Assembly (NCBI GenBank): GCA_049598495.1
Contig: JBMYNR010000011.1
Location: 1 to 46,774, forward strand
From: Opitutales bacterium
GTDB taxonomy: Bacteria > Verrucomicrobiota > Verrucomicrobiia > Opitutales > Coraliomargaritaceae
Reading direction: 5' to 3'
Length of the DNA stretch: 46,774 nucleotides
Shown here: positions 4,760 to 23,390 of the stretch, one piece after another
Layout: the number at the start of each line of letters is the position of its first letter
Numbering within the stretch: the first letter of the stretch is position 1
The notes under the pieces: model-generated
Database searches by the model: none
What the model saw: the letters and a program-made list of their open reading frames with translations, nothing else
Told to the model about the DNA's origin: nothing
Translations under genes and position numbers: made by a program

Positions 4760-4866
4760 CCCGGCATCGACTGGGGTCGAACCTGCGCCGTCAAGTTTGG
4801 CGGACAAGCGGTCTCCGTCTGTTCGTAGCTCTGCACACGTCGACGCGAAGGCGTCACATTACTACA
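4760..4866. repeat. Degenerate copy of the GTAG REPIN
   Basis: aacctgcgccg...cggacaagcg...gttcgtagctctgcacacgtcgacgcgaaggcgtcacattactaca aligns with 44-130. Its GTAG supplies the TAG stop (4862-4864) of the convergent kinase-like ORF. Confidence 0.8.
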
Positions 4867-9802: not shown

Positions 9803-10123
9803 AGGGCGCCCTGTTTTGATTTATTCCTGAAATTACATTTTTTTAACATACACTCCATTCAAGCCACACAGTCTGCCCGGTTACGCGAGGGACAGACGTG
9901 CCCTCTCAAAGAAGGAAGATCATCTGGATGTAGGAAAAATGTATCCCACCTGCTTGAGCCGAAGAGCACGAAGGCACGCTAACTGCCCCCCTCTGCGTTC
10001 TCCCCGATCGATAAAACCGTTGATAATTGATTGACCGACAAGACCACTAGTTCGTTATGTTCGTGTTTATACATTGTCTGCTGCTAACGAATCATCGGTA
10101 GGCGATAACCACACTTTCTCACG

Positions 10124-15144: not shown

Positions 15145-15277
15145 ACAAATTCGAGGAGCGAGAACCCGGATGCCTGATCAGACGGCTCCTGCTCCCCGAT
15201 CATCAAATCAGACATCCTGATTTCCGATGTTGCCACCAGAGCTTTCCGCATCAAAGCATCGCACCTGAATGGGGTTC

Positions 15278-15440
15278 CGAACAGACGGAAGTGCTTGGCC
15301 GTCGACCTTGCTGGCACAAGCTCGCTACGTTGTGCCGGATGTAGCGATTGAAAGCTTTGTAGAATCGAATCAGACGGCCCAAAGAGCGAACTCCAACAAG
15401 GCCCCACGCATCCTAAGCGCTGGAGTGCCCCCTTTAGAGC
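15278..15440 (-). repeat. Inverted dispersed copy of the composite REP element
   Basis: Reverse complement aligns with 347-510 (ORF track gives ALKGALQRLGCVGPCWSS vs ALKGALQRLGCVELCWSS); lies between convergent ppc and gatB. Confidence 0.88.
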
Positions 15441-15463
15441 CGATTCGAGAGCCAGCCTAGCGA

Positions 15464-15493
15464 TCTGGATTGAGACATGCCTCACAATCCAGA
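15464..15493. terminator. Stem-loop just downstream of gatB
   Basis: tctggattg...caatccaga arms with inner tgag/ctca, about 10 nt after the gatB stop. Confidence 0.4.
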
Positions 15494-15502
15494 CCACCTG
15501 AT

Positions 15503-16969
15503 CTAACCTTCATCAATCAACTTCTTAAGAAGTTCATCGAGCATGGCCGGGTTTGCTTTACCCCTGGTCGCCTTCATGACGGGGCCCTTTAGTGCGTTAA
15601 TCGCCTTAGCGTTGCCGTCTTTATACTGATTCACGGCCTTCTCGTTATTGGCAATGGCATCACGGCAGAGTGCTTCAATTTCATCGGAATCGTTACTCTG
15701 CTTAAGTCCCTTCTTCTCGACAATCACGTCCGGCATCTCACCAGTGGCGAACATCTCGGCAAAAACCTCTTTCGCAATCTGCTTGGAGATAATACCCTCA
15801 TCAATGATCCTAGCGAGCATGCCAACATGTGCTGGTGTGAGTTGACACTCCCCAACACGAAGATCCTGTTCGCCATGCCCAGAGGCATCGGCCAGGTCTC
15901 GAAGTAAGTCGTTGGCCACATAATTCGCGATGAGCTTGGGCGAGTTGTGCGTCTCAAGAGCCGCTTCAAAGAACTCACTAAGCTCACGATTTGGGCAAAT
16001 CACGCTTGTCACCGTATACGGCAAATTGAACTCGGCTTGGAAACGCCGTTGTTTATCAAAGGGTCGCTCAGGTAGTGCGCTCTTAAGCTCATGGACCCGA
16101 TCGCGATCCATTTGCACGGGCATAAGGTCGGGATCCGGGAAATAGCGATAGTCGTGGGCTTCCTCCTTACTGCGGAGGGAAAAGCTCATCCCTTGATCTA
16201 CATCCCAGCGGCGAGTCTCCTGAACAACCACCCCACCCTGATCAAGGATATCAGCCTGACGCTCGATCTCGTATTCAATGGCTGCCCTAACATTGGAGAT
16301 AGAATTTAAATTTTTCATCTCCGTGCGGGTTCCGAGTCGATCACTCCCCCTTGGTTTAAGTGAAACATTAGCGTCGCAGCGCAATTGCCCCTTCTCCATG
16401 TCGCAGTCCGAAACACCCGCGTAGACAATAAGGTTTCGCAGGGCATTCAAAAAAGCGACTGCCTCTGCAGAGCTGTTCATATCGGGCTCCGTAACGATTT
16501 CGGCCAATGGCACACCGGCACGATTAAAATCAATGAGAGTATCAAACGCTTCGTGGGTCAGCTTTCCCGGATCTTCCTCCAGGTGAATGCGGTTCAGTTC
16601 AACCCATCGATGCTCGCCCGCTGCGTTGCGAGCCGCATCAGCAAGCTCGATCTCGACCTTCCCCCCAAAACAGAGTGGCTGTTCGTTTTGTGTCAGTTGA
16701 TAGTTCTTCGGAGAGTCCGGATAAAAGTAGTTCTTCCGGTCCCATTTGCATTCATCCGCGATCTCACACCCAAGCATGAGTCCGAGCTGCACGCACTTCT
16801 CAATCGCCTCGTAATTGAGGACCGGCAGCGTCCCCGGCAAACCAATTACTACGGGGTCAATTAAAGTGTTTGGCTCGGCTCCGTATTCGTAGGGTGCCGA
16901 GGTAAACATCTTTGTGCGTGTCTTAATCTGCACGTGAATCTCAAGTCCAATAACGACGTCGTATTCCAT
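15503..16969 (-). CDS. gatB: Asp-tRNA(Asn)/Glu-tRNA(Gln) amidotransferase subunit B
   Basis: VIGLEIHVQ, DRKNYFYPD, RIHLEEDPGK, EIVTEPD, DYRYFPDPDL. Confidence 0.98.
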   Translation of the reverse strand: MEYDVVIGLEIHVQIKTRTKMFTSAPYEYGAEPNTLIDPVVIGLPGTLPVLNYEAIEKCVQLGLMLGCEIADECKWDRKNYFYPDSPKNYQLTQNEQPLCFGGKVEIELADAARNAAGEHRWVELNRIHLEEDPGKLTHEAFDTLIDFNRAGVPLAEIVTEPDMNSSAEAVAFLNALRNLIVYAGVSDCDMEKGQLRCDANVSLKPRGSDRLGTRTEMKNLNSISNVRAAIEYEIERQADILDQGGVVVQETRRWDVDQGMSFSLRSKEEAHDYRYFPDPDLMPVQMDRDRVHELKSALPERPFDKQRRFQAEFNLPYTVTSVICPNRELSEFFEAALETHNSPKLIANYVANDLLRDLADASGHGEQDLRVGECQLTPAHVGMLARIIDEGIISKQIAKEVFAEMFATGEMPDVIVEKKGLKQSNDSDEIEALCRDAIANNEKAVNQYKDGNAKAINALKGPVMKATRGKANPAMLDELLKKLIDEG

Positions 16970-16990
16970 CTTTGAAAGTGTTTTAGATGT

Positions 16991-17430
16991 CTCACGCGAA
17001 GAACGCAGAGACGCAAAGTTATTCAGGTAGGTTGTTTACTATGCGAGCGATACCCTCCTTCATAAGAGGCGCTCCAAAATTAAGGAGAAAGCCAAGTTTC
17101 TTATCTGTGAGTTTCAGATGCGAAAGTAGCTGCTTGTTATGTGAACGATGAAGTTGTTCGATAGATTTGAGTTCGACGATGACTTTGTCCTGAACGACCA
17201 GATCTGCACGAAAACCCTCATCAAAATACTCACCTTCAAAGTGAATCGGAACCGGCACTTGTCGTAGAACTTTTAGGCCGCGCTTTTCAAGCTGATGGGC
17301 TAAGATCACTTCATAGACATGCTCAAGAAGACCCGGGCCGAGTGCCTGATGGATTTTCACAGCTGCATCTATAATCTCAGCACCTATTTCGTTCTCATCC
17401 ATCTTTGCGTCTTTGCGTTCTCTGCGTGAG
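16991..17430 (-). mobile_element. Putative GxxExxY cassette (IR-ORF-IR, 440 bp) between gatA and gatB
   Basis: 28-bp inverted repeats at 16991-17018 and 17403-17430 (25/28 identical) directly abut the stop and the start codon of the GxxExxY ORF. Confidence 0.7.
17019..17402 (-). CDS. GxxExxY protein (PD-(D/E)XK nuclease-like superfamily)
   Basis: IH..LGPGLLEHVY, FRADLVV..KVIVELKS, QLLSHLKLT..KLGFLLNFG; 127 aa. Confidence 0.95.
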   Translation of the reverse strand: MDENEIGAEIIDAAVKIHQALGPGLLEHVYEVILAHQLEKRGLKVLRQVPVPIHFEGEYFDEGFRADLVVQDKVIVELKSIEQLHRSHNKQLLSHLKLTDKKLGFLLNFGAPLMKEGIARIVNNLPE

Positions 17431-17438
17431 GCGATAAA

Positions 17439-18905
17439 TCAAAGCGTCGGTGTCGCATTATGGTAGTCGTGAGCTTGCTCAAAAGCGCGAGCAACGGCGA
17501 ACATGTCGGCTTCGCCGAAGGCCTTTCCGATAATCTGTAGGCCAATCGGGAGCCCATTCTCTGTGAATCCACTCGGAATCGAGATGGCTGGCAGTCCAGC
17601 GAGATTCACCGAGATGGTGAAAATATCACTGAGATACATCGCCAAAGGATCATCCGAACGTTCGCCTCGATTAAAGGCAGGAGTCGGCGAGGTTGGCGAG
17701 AGAATCGCATCGCATTGCTCGAAAGCTTTTTCAAAATCTCCGAGAATCAAGCGGCGCACCTTCTGGGCACGAAGATAATAAGCATCATAGTATCCCGAGC
17801 TGAGCACATAGGTTCCAAGAATAATACGGCGCTTCACCTCATCCCCGAAACCTTCACCCCTACTTTTACTAAATAAGCTCAGTGCATCCTTGGCCTCTTC
17901 ACTTCGGTGACTGTAGCGTACTCCATCAAAACGGGCGAGATTCGAAGAGGCCTCCGCAGTCGCGACAATATAATACACGGGCACCGCAAGTTCCGAGTTG
18001 GGCAGGGAAATGTCGATTATCTCACAGCCCTGCTTCTTATACCAGTCAATGGCTTGCTCGATATTGGCCTTCACTTCAGGGTCTATGCCCTCTCCGAAAA
18101 ACTCTCTTGGCACGCCCAATTTCCACGGACCCTTCTTCTCTTTAAGAAGCTCCGCGTAGTTGGTTTCGCCCTGAGGGGAAATAGAAGTCGAATCCAAATC
18201 ATCCTTACCAAGCATCGCCTCCATCAGAATCGCAGCATCCTCAACTGTACGTGCAAATGGCCCAACTTGATCAAGAGACGAGGCAAAGGCCACGAGACCA
18301 TAACGGGAGATGAGACCATAGGTCGGCTTCATACCAACCACACCGCAGAGCGCAGCTGGTTGACGAATCGAGCCGCCCGTATCGGTGCCCAGTGTGGCAA
18401 TAGCCTCACCCGCAGCTACGGCGGCCGCGCTGCCGCCGGAAGAACCACCGGGAATCTTTTCCAAATCCCAGGGGTTGGATGTGATTTGGAAAGCTGAGTT
18501 CTCGGTTGATGAGCCCATTGCAAACTCATCCATATTCAAACGTCCGTAAATGATAGCGCCTGCCTCACGAAGCTTGGCGATACAGGTGGCATCAAAGGGC
18601 GATACATAGTTTTCCAGCATCTTGGATGCACAGCTCAGCGGCTGGTCCTTCACAGCGAGTATGTCCTTGATGCCGACCGGGATACCGTCCAAGCGTCCTC
18701 GGCTCTCGCCAGCAGCGCGGCGTGCATCCGAAGCCTTGGCCTGTGCCAATGCATCTTCAGCATCCAAGTGAAGGAAGGCCTTCACCTTGCCATCAACAGC
18801 CGCGGTTCGATCGATCACCGCTTGAGTCAGTTCAACCGAGGTCAACTCACCTGCTTCAAGCGCAGCGGACAACTCGGTGATGGTTTTGAAATAGAGTTTG
18901 GACAT
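17439..18905 (-). CDS. gatA: Glutamyl-tRNA amidotransferase subunit A
   Basis: Amidase signature GGSSGGSAAAV, LGTDTGGSIRQPA, EASSNLARFDG, EVKRRIILGTYVLSSGYYDAYY. Confidence 0.98.
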   Translation of the reverse strand: MSKLYFKTITELSAALEAGELTSVELTQAVIDRTAAVDGKVKAFLHLDAEDALAQAKASDARRAAGESRGRLDGIPVGIKDILAVKDQPLSCASKMLENYVSPFDATCIAKLREAGAIIYGRLNMDEFAMGSSTENSAFQITSNPWDLEKIPGGSSGGSAAAVAAGEAIATLGTDTGGSIRQPAALCGVVGMKPTYGLISRYGLVAFASSLDQVGPFARTVEDAAILMEAMLGKDDLDSTSISPQGETNYAELLKEKKGPWKLGVPREFFGEGIDPEVKANIEQAIDWYKKQGCEIIDISLPNSELAVPVYYIVATAEASSNLARFDGVRYSHRSEEAKDALSLFSKSRGEGFGDEVKRRIILGTYVLSSGYYDAYYLRAQKVRRLILGDFEKAFEQCDAILSPTSPTPAFNRGERSDDPLAMYLSDIFTISVNLAGLPAISIPSGFTENGLPIGLQIIGKAFGEADMFAVARAFEQAHDYHNATPTL

Positions 18906-18924
18906 TTTTCTAAAACTGCGCCTG

Positions 18925-19017
18925 TTAACCGCTGAGTTCGCGGAGAGCGCGGAGTGTAAGAATGAAAAATCTACGTTTGAGTGGGCTCTATGGAGTCTCG
19001 GCGCTCTCTGCGGTTAA
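18925..19017. mobile_element. Empty (ORF-less, MITE-like) derivative of the GxxExxY cassette between gatC and gatA
   Basis: Arms ttaaccgctgagttcgcggagagcgcggag (18925-18954) and ctctatggagtctcggcgctctctgcggttaa (18986-19017) share the CGCnGAGnn periodicity of the cassette IRs; ~31-bp spacer. Confidence 0.65.
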
Positions 19018-19027
19018 TAAACATGGG

Positions 19028-19318
19028 CTATTCTACAACCTTCGGCACAAGGACTTGGTTCTCCCTGTGTTCCGGAGCCATCTTCGTGAGCACCTCCGGG
19101 CCCAAGGTTGCACCGATCTCGTCGCCCTCGCGCCAGACATTGTAGACTTTGTTGGCGTGAGCCATCGGCTCGACCCCGTCGACGTCCACAGCTTTGAGTT
19201 TTTCAAAATAGCCTAAGATATCGTCGAGTTGAGCGCCCAGTTTTGCCTTCCCACCTTCGCTCATATCGAGGCGTGCGAGATTCGCCACGTAGTCGATGTC
19301 CATCTGTGTATTTGACAT
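19028..19318 (-). CDS. gatC: Amidotransferase subunit C
   Basis: IDYVANLARL, QLDDILGYFEKL..VD..GVEP, VPKVVE; sits upstream of gatA. Confidence 0.96.
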   Translation of the reverse strand: MSNTQMDIDYVANLARLDMSEGGKAKLGAQLDDILGYFEKLKAVDVDGVEPMAHANKVYNVWREGDEIGATLGPEVLTKMAPEHRENQVLVPKVVE

Positions 19319-19321
19319 AAG

Positions 19322-19349
19322 AATTTAGAAGTTAGGAGTTGGAATGATA
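19322..19349. repeat. Short 7-bp-periodic tract between pheT and gatC
   Basis: aatttag/aagttag/gagttgg/aatgata. Confidence 0.4.
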
Positions 19350-19393
19350 AAATTACTTAGAGTGAACTTCGGGAAATCTCTGCACCGAATCAA

Positions 19394-21853
19394 TTATTTC
19401 CTGATTTGGTAATCGGTTTTCTCGGTGATCAACGTCTGAATGCCCTCGAAGGCTGCATTGACCTCTTTGTCCTTCAGTGTGCGATCGGCAGCGCGAAAGC
19501 TCATCGTTACGGCAAGGCTCTTCTTACCTGCGGGCAGACCTTCCCCTAGGTAGACGTCAAAAATACGAACGCTTTCACAATCGAACCCCTTGGTAGCCTT
19601 CTTGGCAAATTTGGCGATCTCACGCTCCACATTACCCGCCTGAACAGAGGCGTCTACAATCAAGGCCAGGTCTTTCGCTGATGCCGGCTGATTACTAATG
19701 CCGAGATGGCGCCCGAGTTTGGCCTTACGCTCGAAGAACTTTGGTGTCATCAGGATGGAGCCCGCGATGACAGGCGTCGTCAAGTCCCAGCGATCCTTCA
19801 AAGTAGCTACATTCAAAAGACCACAAGTCGCTTCAAACCCCATCTTTGCGAAATCGCCTGCGTAAGCGGCGTGCCCCCCCTGCCAGAGCTTGCAGTTGTC
19901 GATCGGATGGAAACTGAGTTTATTTGCTGCAGTGCCCGCGATCTCGAGCAGTTCACCGGCAATCGACTTGGCGGTATAGAAATCGGCGAGCTCACGCTGC
20001 CGCCATTCACGGCTGATCTGATCCGCGACAATTACGAAGCCAACCGATATTAGCTCCATCATTTGCCCCTTCACCTGGCGGTAAACATGACCGCGCTCAA
20101 AGAATCGCGTGGCACCGGTTCCTCGGGCCGCATTTAGCTGGAGCACATCGAGGAGTCCGGGTATCAAGGATGGGCGCAAGTGGCTTTGGTCGCTTTGCAA
20201 AGGATTATCAAGCGCGAGCACCTGGTAGTTCTCTTCGCCGAAGAAGAATTTCGTCTCGTCCGGATCACGGAGCGAGTAAAGGAAGGCCTCGTTGAAATTC
20301 TGCCCGGTAAGATAATCGGCAACCGCCTCATTCACAGTGTAAATGCGGTGATCGTCCTCAGATATCCCACGTGCAACGACCTCCGACTCGGGAATCTTGT
20401 CAGTGCCGTAGACGCGCACAAATTCCTCGATCAGATCGACCTCCCTCAACAGGTCCCCTCGGAATGACGGAATGGACACTTCCCAGCGAGTGCCACCAAC
20501 TGCCTTGTCGTGGATCGAAACATCCAAGCCAAGCGATTCGAGTGTGCTCTGAATCTCATCATCACTGACATCGAAACCGATGAAAGCGCGCACCCGATCC
20601 GGATTTAAGATGATCTCAGTCATCGTAGGCGGCTCCGCCCCCACCGAGATCATGTCGCCATCGACCCGACCTCCGGCAACCTCAAGAATAAGATCCGCCG
20701 CTCGCAACAACGCGTAGGTCACTCCCAGGGGGTCCACACCACGTTCGAAGCGATAGGAACTGTCCGAAGACAAGCCGAGTTTACGCGAAGTCGCACGCAC
20801 TGAAGAAGGTGCAAAATAAGCGGCTTCAAGCACAACATCCGTCGTCGAATCGTCGACCTCGGCATCCGACGAACCCATGACACCCGCAACAACGAGCGGC
20901 CGTCCGGAATCTGCAATCACCGCCATGTTTGCATCCAGTGTGCGTTCAACTTCGTCCAGCGTCGTGATCTTCTCCAAATCTTCCGCCATGCGAACGACCA
21001 ACTTGCGACCCTTGATCTTAGCCGCGTCAAATGCATGAAGAGGCTGACAGGTTTCGTGCAGCACATAGTTAGTCACATCGACCACATTATTGATGGATCG
21101 CTGCCCGGTTGCTTCGATCGCATCTTTAAGCCACTTCGGGCTTGGACCAACCTTCACACCCTTGATACAAATTGCGGTGTAATGCGGGCATACTTCGGAA
21201 GCACTCACTTCGACACCGGAAATGAGCGCTTCACCTTCGGATCCGTTCTCTGTGCTCGCCTTGACCTCGGGGTATTTCACCGCAAGTCCGAACTTCGCGG
21301 CCAACTCGCGGGCCACGCCGATGTGGCTCAGCACATCCACCCGATTGGGAGTGATTTCCAGATCAAATACGGTGTCCCCGTCAGCGAACAACTCGTTTAC
21401 CGGCGTGCCCAAATCCGTTCCGGGATCAACAATCATGATGCCGTCGTGGTCCTGACCGATCTGTAGTTCCTTGGCGGAACACATCATACCCGCCGAGGGT
21501 TGTCCTCGAAGCTTGGAAGCCTTGATCTTAAAGTTACCCGGCAGCACCGCTCCGGGGAGCGCCACCATGACCTTGTCGCCTTCCTTAAAATTCTTAGCAC
21601 CACAGACGATATCGTGGACTTCCCCCTCGTTGCCTGTGCTCACCTTGCAACAGCGCAACCGATCGGCATCTGGGTGTTGACCATATTCAATTACCTGACC
21701 GACGACAACATTTTCAAGCTGGGGCGGACCAAGCTTCTCGTGCTCTTCAATATCGAAACCAAGCAGCGGGAGAACCTCGGCCAAGACTTCCGGCGAGTGC
21801 TCAACCGGATCGAGGTCAATGTAGTTTTTGAGCCAATTATAGGAAATTTTCAT
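19394..21853 (-). CDS. pheT: Phenylalanyl-tRNA synthetase beta subunit
   Basis: MKISYNWL, HPDADRL, IVCGAKN, LEITPNR.D.LSHIGVARE, SSYRFERGVD, C-terminal FDX-ACB domain. Confidence 0.98.
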   Translation of the reverse strand: MKISYNWLKNYIDLDPVEHSPEVLAEVLPLLGFDIEEHEKLGPPQLENVVVGQVIEYGQHPDADRLRCCKVSTGNEGEVHDIVCGAKNFKEGDKVMVALPGAVLPGNFKIKASKLRGQPSAGMMCSAKELQIGQDHDGIMIVDPGTDLGTPVNELFADGDTVFDLEITPNRVDVLSHIGVARELAAKFGLAVKYPEVKASTENGSEGEALISGVEVSASEVCPHYTAICIKGVKVGPSPKWLKDAIEATGQRSINNVVDVTNYVLHETCQPLHAFDAAKIKGRKLVVRMAEDLEKITTLDEVERTLDANMAVIADSGRPLVVAGVMGSSDAEVDDSTTDVVLEAAYFAPSSVRATSRKLGLSSDSSYRFERGVDPLGVTYALLRAADLILEVAGGRVDGDMISVGAEPPTMTEIILNPDRVRAFIGFDVSDDEIQSTLESLGLDVSIHDKAVGGTRWEVSIPSFRGDLLREVDLIEEFVRVYGTDKIPESEVVARGISEDDHRIYTVNEAVADYLTGQNFNEAFLYSLRDPDETKFFFGEENYQVLALDNPLQSDQSHLRPSLIPGLLDVLQLNAARGTGATRFFERGHVYRQVKGQMMELISVGFVIVADQISREWRQRELADFYTAKSIAGELLEIAGTAANKLSFHPIDNCKLWQGGHAAYAGDFAKMGFEATCGLLNVATLKDRWDLTTPVIAGSILMTPKFFERKAKLGRHLGISNQPASAKDLALIVDASVQAGNVEREIAKFAKKATKGFDCESVRIFDVYLGEGLPAGKKSLAVTMSFRAADRTLKDKEVNAAFEGIQTLITEKTDYQIRK

Positions 21854-21886
21854 GAAAGATAGATATAACCACTCCAGCGCTTTATA

Positions 21887-22336
21887 AACCGCAGAGAACG
21901 CGGAGAGCGGGGAGAAGAAAGGAGTTATGATTCTGTATGATTATTGACAACTCGACGGATGCCGTCTTTGAGAAGTGGAACGTTGAAATTGATTAGATAA
22001 CCGAGCGTGCAGCCCGAAAGTTTTAAGTAGGTTAAGAGTTGTGCCATGTGGACGTTGTTCAGTTCATCAACCACCTTGAGTTCGAGGATGATTTCATTCT
22101 CTACAATTACATCAATTCTATAGGCTTCATCGATCTCGAGCCCCTTGTAACGAATCGGTTACTTCTTCTGGTCGAACCGCCTTGATACCTTGCAGGTTCA
22201 ATTCGAGAGCCAAGCAAGCCTCGTAGGTGCTTTCCAGAAGACCAGGACCGAGTTCTCGATGCACCTCAATTGCGGCTCCGATAATCTTATCACTTAGTTC
22301 ATTCATTTCTCTGCGCTCTCAGCGTGCTTTGCGGTT
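21887..22336 (-). mobile_element. Second GxxExxY cassette (decayed) between pheS and pheT
   Basis: 30-bp inverted repeats at 21887-21916 and 22307-22336 (25/30). The upstream IR abuts the ATG; the downstream IR lies 8 nt beyond the stop. Confidence 0.7.
21925..22306 (-). pseudogene. Frameshifted GxxExxY protein gene (absent from the ORF track)
   Basis: Manual translation: [45 protein letters not shown], a net +1 frameshift near 22159-22171, then [77 protein letters not shown]. Confidence 0.9.
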
Positions 22337-22349
22337 AAGAAAAGGTATC

Positions 22350-23390
22350 CTACGCAAACTGCTTCAGGAAGCGAACGTCGTTCTGGTAATAATAGCGGAT
22401 ATCATCAACGCCCTGAAGAATCATCGCGATACGTTCGATCCCCATTCCAAAGGCGTAGCCTGTATAAACATCAGGATCGATCCCAACTGCTTTGAACACC
22501 TCGGGATCCACCATGCCGCAACCCATGATCTCGAGCCACTTATTGCTCAGTTTACCGAGATCGGGGGAAAAGAAATCCATTTCGAAGCTGGGCTCCGTGA
22601 ACGGGAAGAAACTTGGACGCAGACGCGTCTTAGCCTTGGGCCCAAAGATGGTTTTTACGAAGTGATCGAGCGTGGCCTTCAGATCGAGGAGTGTGACATT
22701 CTTATCGACGTAAAGCCCCTCAATCTGGTGAAAGTTCGCGCTGTGCGTAGCATCGGGTGTATCACGCCGAAAGCAACGTCCGGGCGCGATGATACGAATC
22801 GGCGGCGCTTCCTTCAGCATCGTGCGAATCTGTACCGTGGAGGTATGCGTACGGAGAAGATATTTCTCGTCACCCTCTTTACCAACGTTGGCAACCGTCA
22901 ACTCATCGGGCAAATAATAGGAATCCTGCATATCGCGTGCCGGATGATCTGAGGGTATATTGAGGGCATCAAAGCAATAGTGTTCAGTTTCCACCTCGGT
23001 CGCCTCGGCAACAGAGAACCCAATCCGGTGAAACAAGCGGACCATCTCCTCACGAACTTGTGCAACCGGGTGAATCGTGCCGCGCTGACTGTCGGGACTC
23101 GGGAGCGAAGGATCAATTGCCGGTCCGAGCTTCGATGCCAATTCAGCAGCCTCTAGACGCTCAATCACCACGGCAAAGCTCAGCTCAACGGCTTTCTTCG
23201 CCTCATTAATCAATTTACCCATGGCTGGCTTATCCTCTCTTGGGACTTCCCCCATCCTCTTCATCGCCTCCGTCAGCCTACCATTCGGACCGGAAATGGT
23301 CGCCTTAAAGGCCTCAAACTCCGCACGCGTTTCAATAGCCGGTGCTTTCTCACCGACACTCGCGACAATTGCGTTTAACTCTTCTTGCAT
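22350..23390 (-). CDS. pheS: Phenylalanyl-tRNA synthetase alpha subunit
   Basis: FDALNIP.DHPARDMQD, LLRTHTS, FHQIEGL, RPSFFPFTEPS, FGMGIERIAM. Start trimmed to ATG 23390 (MQEELN). Confidence 0.98.
   Translation of the reverse strand: MQEELNAIVASVGEKAPAIETRAEFEAFKATISGPNGRLTEAMKRMGEVPREDKPAMGKLINEAKKAVELSFAVVIERLEAAELASKLGPAIDPSLPSPDSQRGTIHPVAQVREEMVRLFHRIGFSVAEATEVETEHYCFDALNIPSDHPARDMQDSYYLPDELTVANVGKEGDEKYLLRTHTSTVQIRTMLKEAPPIRIIAPGRCFRRDTPDATHSANFHQIEGLYVDKNVTLLDLKATLDHFVKTIFGPKAKTRLRPSFFPFTEPSFEMDFFSPDLGKLSNKWLEIMGCGMVDPEVFKAVGIDPDVYTGYAFGMGIERIAMILQGVDDIRYYYQNDVRFLKQFA

Follow-up and report, generated by a model that had tools for sequence, protein, structure and literature searches.

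Between gatA and gatB of an Opitutales bacterium lies a small nuclease gene which is enclosed by a pair of inverted repeats, here called arms. It is one of several cassettes that related genomes carry interchangeably at such gaps. We give about an even chance to the explanation that this cassette persists as selfish DNA, with a nuclease that would recognise its arms at the DNA level and drive a homing-like replacement of the rival allele. The observations behind it are the anatomy of the cassette, intact catalytic residues, purifying selection and clades that are tied to junctions. To these are added the varying occupancy of orthologous gaps, copies that are decayed or have lost the gene, patches of altered host sequence at swapped gaps and the lack of a wobble bias on the mRNA strand.

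The gatA-gatB cassette and its nuclease

The window, i.e. the whole stretch of 46,774 nucleotides that was analysed, contains the features listed in Table 1. Profile matches located gatC, pheT and pheS upstream of the gatA-gatB pair. The inverted repeats described in the initial annotation are real: arms of 28 nt, 25/28 (89%) complementary and 384 nt apart, are in contact with ATG (17402) and TAA (17019) of the minus-strand ORF, i.e. with zero spacer. As was also stated there, the gatA stop (the gene ends at 17439) is 8 nt beyond one arm, the gatB start (16969) is 21 nt beyond the other, and no target-site duplication is visible at this cassette. On the mRNA strand the three differences between the arms are two A·C mismatches and one G·U pair. 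The RNA duplex of the antisense strand is slightly more stable (-45.9 vs -42.6 kcal/mol for the mRNA strand). Single arms barely fold alone (-2.4 and -6.0 kcal/mol); each pairs only with the other arm. This arm type is represented by just two arms in the whole genome. A weak look-alike (74% over 27 nt) at 9980-10006 of the window stood alone, with no partner seen. A scan for promoters and terminators in 16900-17560 yielded no promoter-like and one terminator-like site, the same as in shuffled sequences, and an Rfam scan of 15200-22500 had no match at the gathering score and one chance match far below it.

Table 1. Cassettes, doublet and host genes in the window (positions of the whole stretch).
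Feature	Position	Strand	Remark
gatB	15503..16969	(-)	downstream host gene
3' arm	16991..17018	(-)	reverse complement of 5' arm (25/28), begins right after TAA
GxxExxY PD-(D/E)XK nuclease gene	17019..17402	(-)	127 aa, intact
5' arm	17403..17430	(-)	head plus three phased 8-9-nt purine-rich boxes, abutting ATG
gatA	17439..18905	(-)	upstream host gene, amidase family
Gene-less doublet	18925..19017	(-)	second arm type (TTAACCGC head), gatC-gatA gap
3' arm of second cassette	21887..21914	(-)	
Second GxxExxY gene	21925..22306	(-)	frameshifted by one extra base
5' arm of second cassette	22307..22338	(-)	pheS-pheT gap, TTAACCGC type

The ORF encodes a GxxExxY protein with full-model matches of 137.8 bits to TIGR04256 (cut-off 35) and 134.6 bits to PF13366 (cut-off 22). 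Profile searches returned only these two and no transposase family. E27, D67, E77 and K79, which constitute the catalytic pattern E...D...ExK, were invariant in 35/35 aligned sequences. The folds closest to an AF2 model of the protein (pLDDT 94.9) were Cas4, the Holliday-junction resolvase Hjc and restriction endonucleases; the structural matches were middling (best Z 8.4, rmsd 3.5, 101 aligned). Foldseek with the model gave no match at E<=0.001, and a search of the PDB by sequence gave no real relative. Judged by the modelled fold and the catalytic residues the product belongs to the PD-(D/E)XK nucleases. The initial annotation had correctly read QLLSH in this copy and contrasted it with a usual QLLTY. 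The histidine is not peculiar to it: because H occurs at that position in 3/34 other aligned homologues (L167, L023, L025), QLLSH is a natural variant, and we have ruled it out as a sign of a broken enzyme.

The nuclease genes are under purifying selection (pN 0.03-0.28 vs pS 0.62-0.92 in 16 pairs). Synonymous sites were saturated in all 16 pairs and generally diverged as much as those of the flanking genes or more. Thus, no recent transfer was caught among these pairs, and a recent horizontal transfer between cassette carriers, which had been considered, was not borne out. Long vertical residence with repeated loss fits the saturation equally well. GxxExxY was found in 38/61 genomes searched and none was found in 23/61; viral contigs had two weak partial matches. 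Some matches lie inside open frames of 254-285 aa and are possibly fusions (G005:C97, G007:C1:5330251, G021:C32:162645, G030:C54, G029:C26:152272 and G041:C380). PF13366, or PDDEXK_3, is given as of unknown function in the text available of PMC3424549. In the literature other than subscription journals and supplements, GxxExxY appeared only as a passing annotation, TIGR04256 was absent and no paper was found on this GxxExxY nuclease-plus-arms system.

The arms in the genome, in the family and in the mRNA

The 'other copy' of the gene to which the initial annotation referred is present in the pheS-pheT gap (21925-22306), yet it is frameshifted. The extra base, near nt 134-135, may indicate decay or an assembly error. 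The DNA of this gene is 72-79% identical to TTAACCGC-type genes at gatA-gatB of four relatives. Either strand of the gene-less doublet at 18925-19017 can fold (z -3.3 and -3.0). The 1.75-Mb genome (G000) has 10 GxxExxY loci, 6 intact and 4 broken, and 9 TIGR02436 matches. A census of ATG-started ORFs of at least 100 aa for inverted repeats with a score of at least 30, within 45 nt of both ends, identified 8/2399 ORFs, i.e. five GxxExxY genes or remnants, two genes for four-helix-bundle proteins (TIGR02436) and one other gene. Because so few ORFs are flanked in this manner and five of them are GxxExxY genes or remnants, the arms around the gatA-gatB gene are not a product of chance. A further dispersed repeat family, which resembles REP or MITE elements and is not related to the GxxExxY arms, has 130-nt copies at 1-130 and 423-552 that share 96% identity. 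It is spread over positions 1-552, 4778-4848 and 15278-15440, with inverted copies downstream of gatB.

Pooling the loci from the genome, metagenome and relative searches resulted in 177 distinct full-length genes. Inverted arms were present in 114/165 loci with 130 nt of flank, compared with 0.7% of shuffles; 51/165 loci had no arms within 130 nt. The arms differ among clades and share the same build, a head followed by about three phased 7-9-nt boxes, and the arm type goes with the protein clade as judged by eye from the tree. From the phased boxes and this correspondence with the clades we infer that the arms are candidate binding sites of the nuclease. Exact contact at both ORF ends is rare and not the family rule. 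Of 171 loci examined, 45 made up a strict set aligned without gaps, with start codons assigned by script; both arms were within 2 nt of the ORF in 6/45 and both at zero in 1/45. Regarding orientation, 52 of 107 distinct loci have inward arms as here, in 13 the nearest arms are reversed, 11 are ambiguous and 31 have other patterns, mostly one-sided; several of the 13 reversed loci are doublets on each side of the gene. A count of co-orientation (40/91) was crude and unreliable and was set aside. In several gatA-gatB alleles the right arm is followed downstream by what may be a 3' end tag; we discarded it as an end of the element as only 3/60 cassettes have it, all at gatA-gatB. At one locus, L044, GxxExxY cassettes with internal deletions are arrayed in tandem, and each of them has both arms.

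The initial annotation had understood the arms as a stem in the operon mRNA which loops out the ORF, sequesters its start, brings gatA and gatB back together and may allow excision at the RNA level. Such a stem can form. MFE and centroid structures of 16960-17460 both include it, with a z-score of only -2.1 for the fold of the whole region. The initiation region is predicted to be buried, as claimed: the mean unpaired probability of positions -20 to -1 dropped from 0.31, computed without the 3' arm, to 0.06 with it. The host genome encodes an RNase III. A Shine-Dalgarno-like word precedes just 46/534 long ORFs of the source genome, and an argument from Shine-Dalgarno sequences is weak here. 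In one metatranscriptome (share 0.05, contigs) we found eight short pieces, one of them 170 nt on the ORF, and no joints or ends, which is too thin to judge processing.

If selection acted on a stem in the mRNA, G·U pairs should outnumber A·C mismatches on the coding strand. In a strand-neutral alignment the arm mismatches on the mRNA strand were 164 G·U to 183 A·C (p 0.33). The ratio was 26:31 in the strict set, where the G·U share had a 95% interval of 0.32-0.59. The 24 loci whose arms are no farther than 15 nt away had 16:20, and 11 gene-less doublets had 14:23. By comparison, the acceptor and T stems of 33 tRNAs of the source genome, used as a control, had 27:0. Hence no tally contains a G·U excess on the mRNA strand, and this speaks against arms that are selected as an mRNA stem. 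Given that the loci share ancestry and that flanking columns were counted in the loose set, weak selection on mRNA pairing of the arms may be compatible with these tallies. Compensatory changes between arms, which would be expected of a maintained stem, do not appear to have occurred steadily. In one arm class the partner arms of an element were indeed more alike than arms of different elements (0.86 vs 0.54, n=9). In two junction-faithful classes, compared ungapped, the likeness of left arms to each other exceeded that of left arms to their own right arms (0.86 vs 0.74, n=3; 0.74 vs 0.52, n=4). As the left arms are closer to other left arms in these two classes, arm pairing is not continuously repaired. 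Now and then one arm may have been copied onto its partner at the DNA level, which would account for the likeness of partner arms without steady compensation.

The idea that the stem reunites gatA and gatB is not supported either. According to the sections available of PMC4990558, excision of 23S rRNA intervening sequences (IVS) by RNase III leaves the fragments unligated. An excision of this type would therefore cut the gatCAB message and not rejoin gatA and gatB. Moreover, there is no fixed spacing to restore since the gatA-gatB gap measures 2-93 nt in 16/27 relatives and 118-538 nt in 11/27. The rarity of contact at both ORF ends and the reversed arms of 13/107 loci likewise count against the RNA-level reading. 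The likeness to ORF-bearing IVS, also drawn in the initial annotation, stands in part. Cassettes with a 23S-IVS-type protein (PF05635/TIGR02436) and inverted arrays occupy the same kind of junction, and because of this the likeness is more than skin-deep. It breaks down insofar as the cassette is not in rRNA, the protein family differs and the wobble signature of an RNA strand is missing. If the cassette is selfish DNA, the mRNA stem is a by-product which probably damps translation of the nuclease. Such damping is a plausible side effect, given that the host encodes an RNase III and that the stem is able to form and is predicted to bury the start. Excision of the cassette from RNA is unlikely.

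Exchange of cassettes at operon junctions

Thirty loci were taken for a comparison of the gatA-gatB junction. Both genes were present in 28, and 27 relatives were counted. A full gene with the arm type of the window was present in two relatives (two further cassettes of this type are L007 and L167). The second arm type accompanied a full gene in four and an internally deleted gene in one, four relatives had gene-less doublets of three arm types and the 16 with short gaps had none of these arms. A third type of cassette was in the gatC-gatA gap of 4/20 relatives, and several pheS-pheT gaps contained doublets. The gatA-gatB gap of L062 (G006) has a total of 320 nt in which a different, G+C-rich hairpin is nested in a gene-less TTAACCGC doublet. 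The states of the gaps are scattered across a host tree which is itself poorly resolved. It was built from gatA/gatB pieces, has 4/24 strong branches and was used only for the kinship of G005, G018 and G007.

Cassette lineages are largely faithful to their junctions. Among the 177 proteins the closest neighbour was located at the same junction for 29/32 junction-labelled genes. Labels were assigned to genes upstream of gatB, gatA, ahcY, purM, alaS, pheT and one unnamed gene; the names ahcY, purM, alaS and leuB rest on Pfam matches. The TTAACCGC lineage is at three neighbouring gaps and 3/32 genes break junction fidelity. Thus, the spread to new sites calls for a second route that is used more rarely.

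The near-identical sister genomes of G005 are G007 and G018, with gatA mostly 90-100% identical per segment compared. At gatA-gatB, G005 has a GxxExxY cassette whereas G007 and G018 have a short hairpin of another repeat, the outer 3' end of which survives in G005. At leuB-alaS, G005 has a GxxExxY cassette whereas in its sisters inverted heptad arrays enclose a gene for a 23S-IVS protein (PF05635). At each of the two gaps G005 and the sisters differ at 10 positions within the final 36 nt of the upstream gene. Further upstream the differences are 13-16/363 (gatA) and 13/459 (leuB, beyond the last 60 nt), i.e. about 3-4%. Thirteen control gene ends had 0-3 differences; only three of these compare G005 with its sisters. 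The start of the downstream gene was unchanged at both swapped gaps and no target duplication was seen there. The change of the gaps is best described as allele replacement by recombination in the flanking genes, as judged from these alignments of two junctions in a single trio of genomes. The direction of the swap in G005 may have been either way. Four further junctions had no usable orthologous pair and three more were not clean swaps.

At a third gap, beside a nitrogenase-family gene, the first codons were changed where a four-helix-bundle cassette and another hairpin alternate. This one gap has three states (L301 vs L328 and L325): the four-helix-bundle cassette in G005, a deletion leaving part of the 3' arm in G018, and a different hairpin plus changed first codons in G007. 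In another set (L291 vs L318 and L319) G018 and G005 share a deletion within a four-helix-bundle ORF, with the arms kept, and the ORF is intact in G007. At leuB-alaS of G018 (L271:1270-1510) the 3' arm of the four-helix-bundle cassette and the alaS start are accompanied by two more tandem repeats.

These patterns suggest the following course of events. The nuclease would recognise its own phased arms in DNA. It would cut either there, with the arms folded back or extruded as a cruciform, or in the rival allele, and repair by way of the flanking homology would then copy the cassette together with a few host codons. Once a junction is saturated the gene would decay to a doublet, and rarely a cassette lineage would reach a new gap. 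We infer that the enzyme would cut DNA and that this cutting, instead of passive recombination, would drive the swaps. Replacement of a patch is also expected from passive recombination of a non-homologous insert.

Known systems and competing explanations

On the features tested, the cassette is outside Ssn, REPIN-RAYT, IVS and insertion sequences. By analogy it may work most like Ssn-SRM (PMC11893778) and the free-standing phage homing endonucleases (PMC2988022), as far as the parts available of these two sources describe them. Ssn nucleases cut ssDNA at their flanking repeats, and the phage enzymes move by intronless homing with co-conversion. With the Ssn system (NTS/SRM), as portrayed in the accessible text of PMC11893778, the cassette shares a small single-domain nuclease gene between cognate repeats that vary with the protein (here at the 114/165 loci mentioned) and gene-less repeats elsewhere. 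In contrast, Ssn is a GIY-YIG enzyme (cd10448) and each SRM is its own hairpin, whereas the protein here is of the PD-(D/E)XK and not the GIY-YIG type, and each arm is a phased array of direct repeats with a low copy number. Free-standing endonucleases of the T4 type, in the portion of PMC2988022 consulted, are likewise intergenic between conserved genes, patchy and associated with co-converted flanks, and their start can be buried in RNA structure. The GxxExxY cassettes also are intergenic and patchy with co-converted flanks, the latter at two junctions of one genome trio. Unlike the phage GIY-YIG or HNH enzymes, for which that portion describes no terminal arms, they are chromosomal, bounded by arms and leave gene-less doublets.

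With the 23S rRNA IVS, as presented in the part available of PMC4990558, the cassette has in common an ORF inside a terminal stem of about 28 bp, and in sister genomes PF05635 cassettes of the IVS type, with inverted heptad arrays, are found at operon junctions of the same kind. Unlike an IVS it is between gatA and gatB and not in an rRNA helix, and its ORF has no PF05635 match. REPIN-RAYT (PMC3116915, in its accessible text) is similar in that extragenic, gene-less inverted doublets are linked to a nuclease gene; here such doublets are the one at 18925-19017 plus 10 more in relatives, and some GxxExxY loci have doublets on both sides of the gene. However, RAYT is an HUH tyrosine transposase and REPs are palindromic with hundreds of copies; the GxxExxY cassettes have neither an HUH Y1 transposase nor high-copy, self-palindromic units. 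An insertion sequence or MITE does not agree with the missing target-site duplication at gatA-gatB and the patch replacement at two junctions.

Other explanations have to be weighed against homing-like replacement. A nuclease kept for some benefit to the host in the manner of Ssn, which would cut arm-bearing incoming or misplaced ssDNA or bind the arms as operators of its own gene, and travel passively by ordinary recombination between the conserved flanking genes, appears rather unlikely to us. The strong purifying selection, the saturation of synonymous sites and the long stay at a single junction are in keeping with it. The gene-between-repeats layout is that of NTS-ssnA-NTS, which restricts transformation (according to the text seen of PMC11893778), and patch swaps need no drive. 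Yet decay is frequent (4/10 loci are broken in the source genome), gene-less remnants are at the same gaps, no GxxExxY was found in 23/61 genomes, and because there are only two arms of the gatA-gatB type genome-wide, little substrate is on hand for a genome-wide role. Still less probable is selection of the arms as an mRNA stem that hides the start of the nuclease gene and, as in ORF-bearing 23S IVS, is a substrate of RNase III, so that the insert is silenced. The stem in MFE and centroid, the predicted burial of the initiation region, the RNase III gene, the junctions shared with PF05635 cassettes and the one class with more similar partner arms (0.86 vs 0.54, n=9) would be in agreement with it. 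So would, in the parts available of either source, the 28-bp terminal stem of the Coxiella IVS (PMC4990558) and the hairpins which cover ribosome-binding sites and repress free-standing endonucleases of T4 (PMC2988022). It is opposed by the absence of a G·U excess in every tally, the closeness of left arms to other left arms in two classes (n=3, n=4), IVS excision without ligation and the reversed arms in 13/107 loci.

Very improbable, and already largely refuted, is a small insertion sequence of the ordinary kind that has MITE-like derivatives and reaches many sites by cut-and-paste. It could account for terminal inverted repeats with phased boxes, for gene-less doublets and for one lineage at three neighbouring gaps. 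However, it is at odds with the lack of a target-site duplication and of a second copy of the gatA-gatB arm type in the genome, with clades that stay at one junction, with swaps that alter flanking codons and with the profile searches, in which no transposase family matched. Returning to homing-like replacement, a broader proposal is possible, and we advance it tentatively. The gene junctions of housekeeping operons might be a contested niche of bacterial chromosomes, in which unrelated arm-bounded cassettes, i.e. the GxxExxY nuclease, the 23S-IVS four-helix-bundle protein and REP-like doublets, home in and displace one another by patch recombination, each GxxExxY clade with its own phased repeat and junction. 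As part of the same tentative proposal, GxxExxY might be a large family of arm-recognising DNA nucleases of about 125 aa that carry out chromosomal intronless homing and mark themselves by their arms.

PF13366/TIGR04256 is a widespread family without a described function. The arms supply each clade with a candidate substrate and thereby suggest a first assay, which in view of the strand test would be directed at DNA instead of RNA processing. Homing-like replacement, if true, would explain why hairpins and small hypothetical genes accumulate in tRNA-synthetase and amidotransferase operons. It would also mean that swaps can change the codons at the end of essential genes, and the family would offer many very small nucleases that differ in their recognition repeats.
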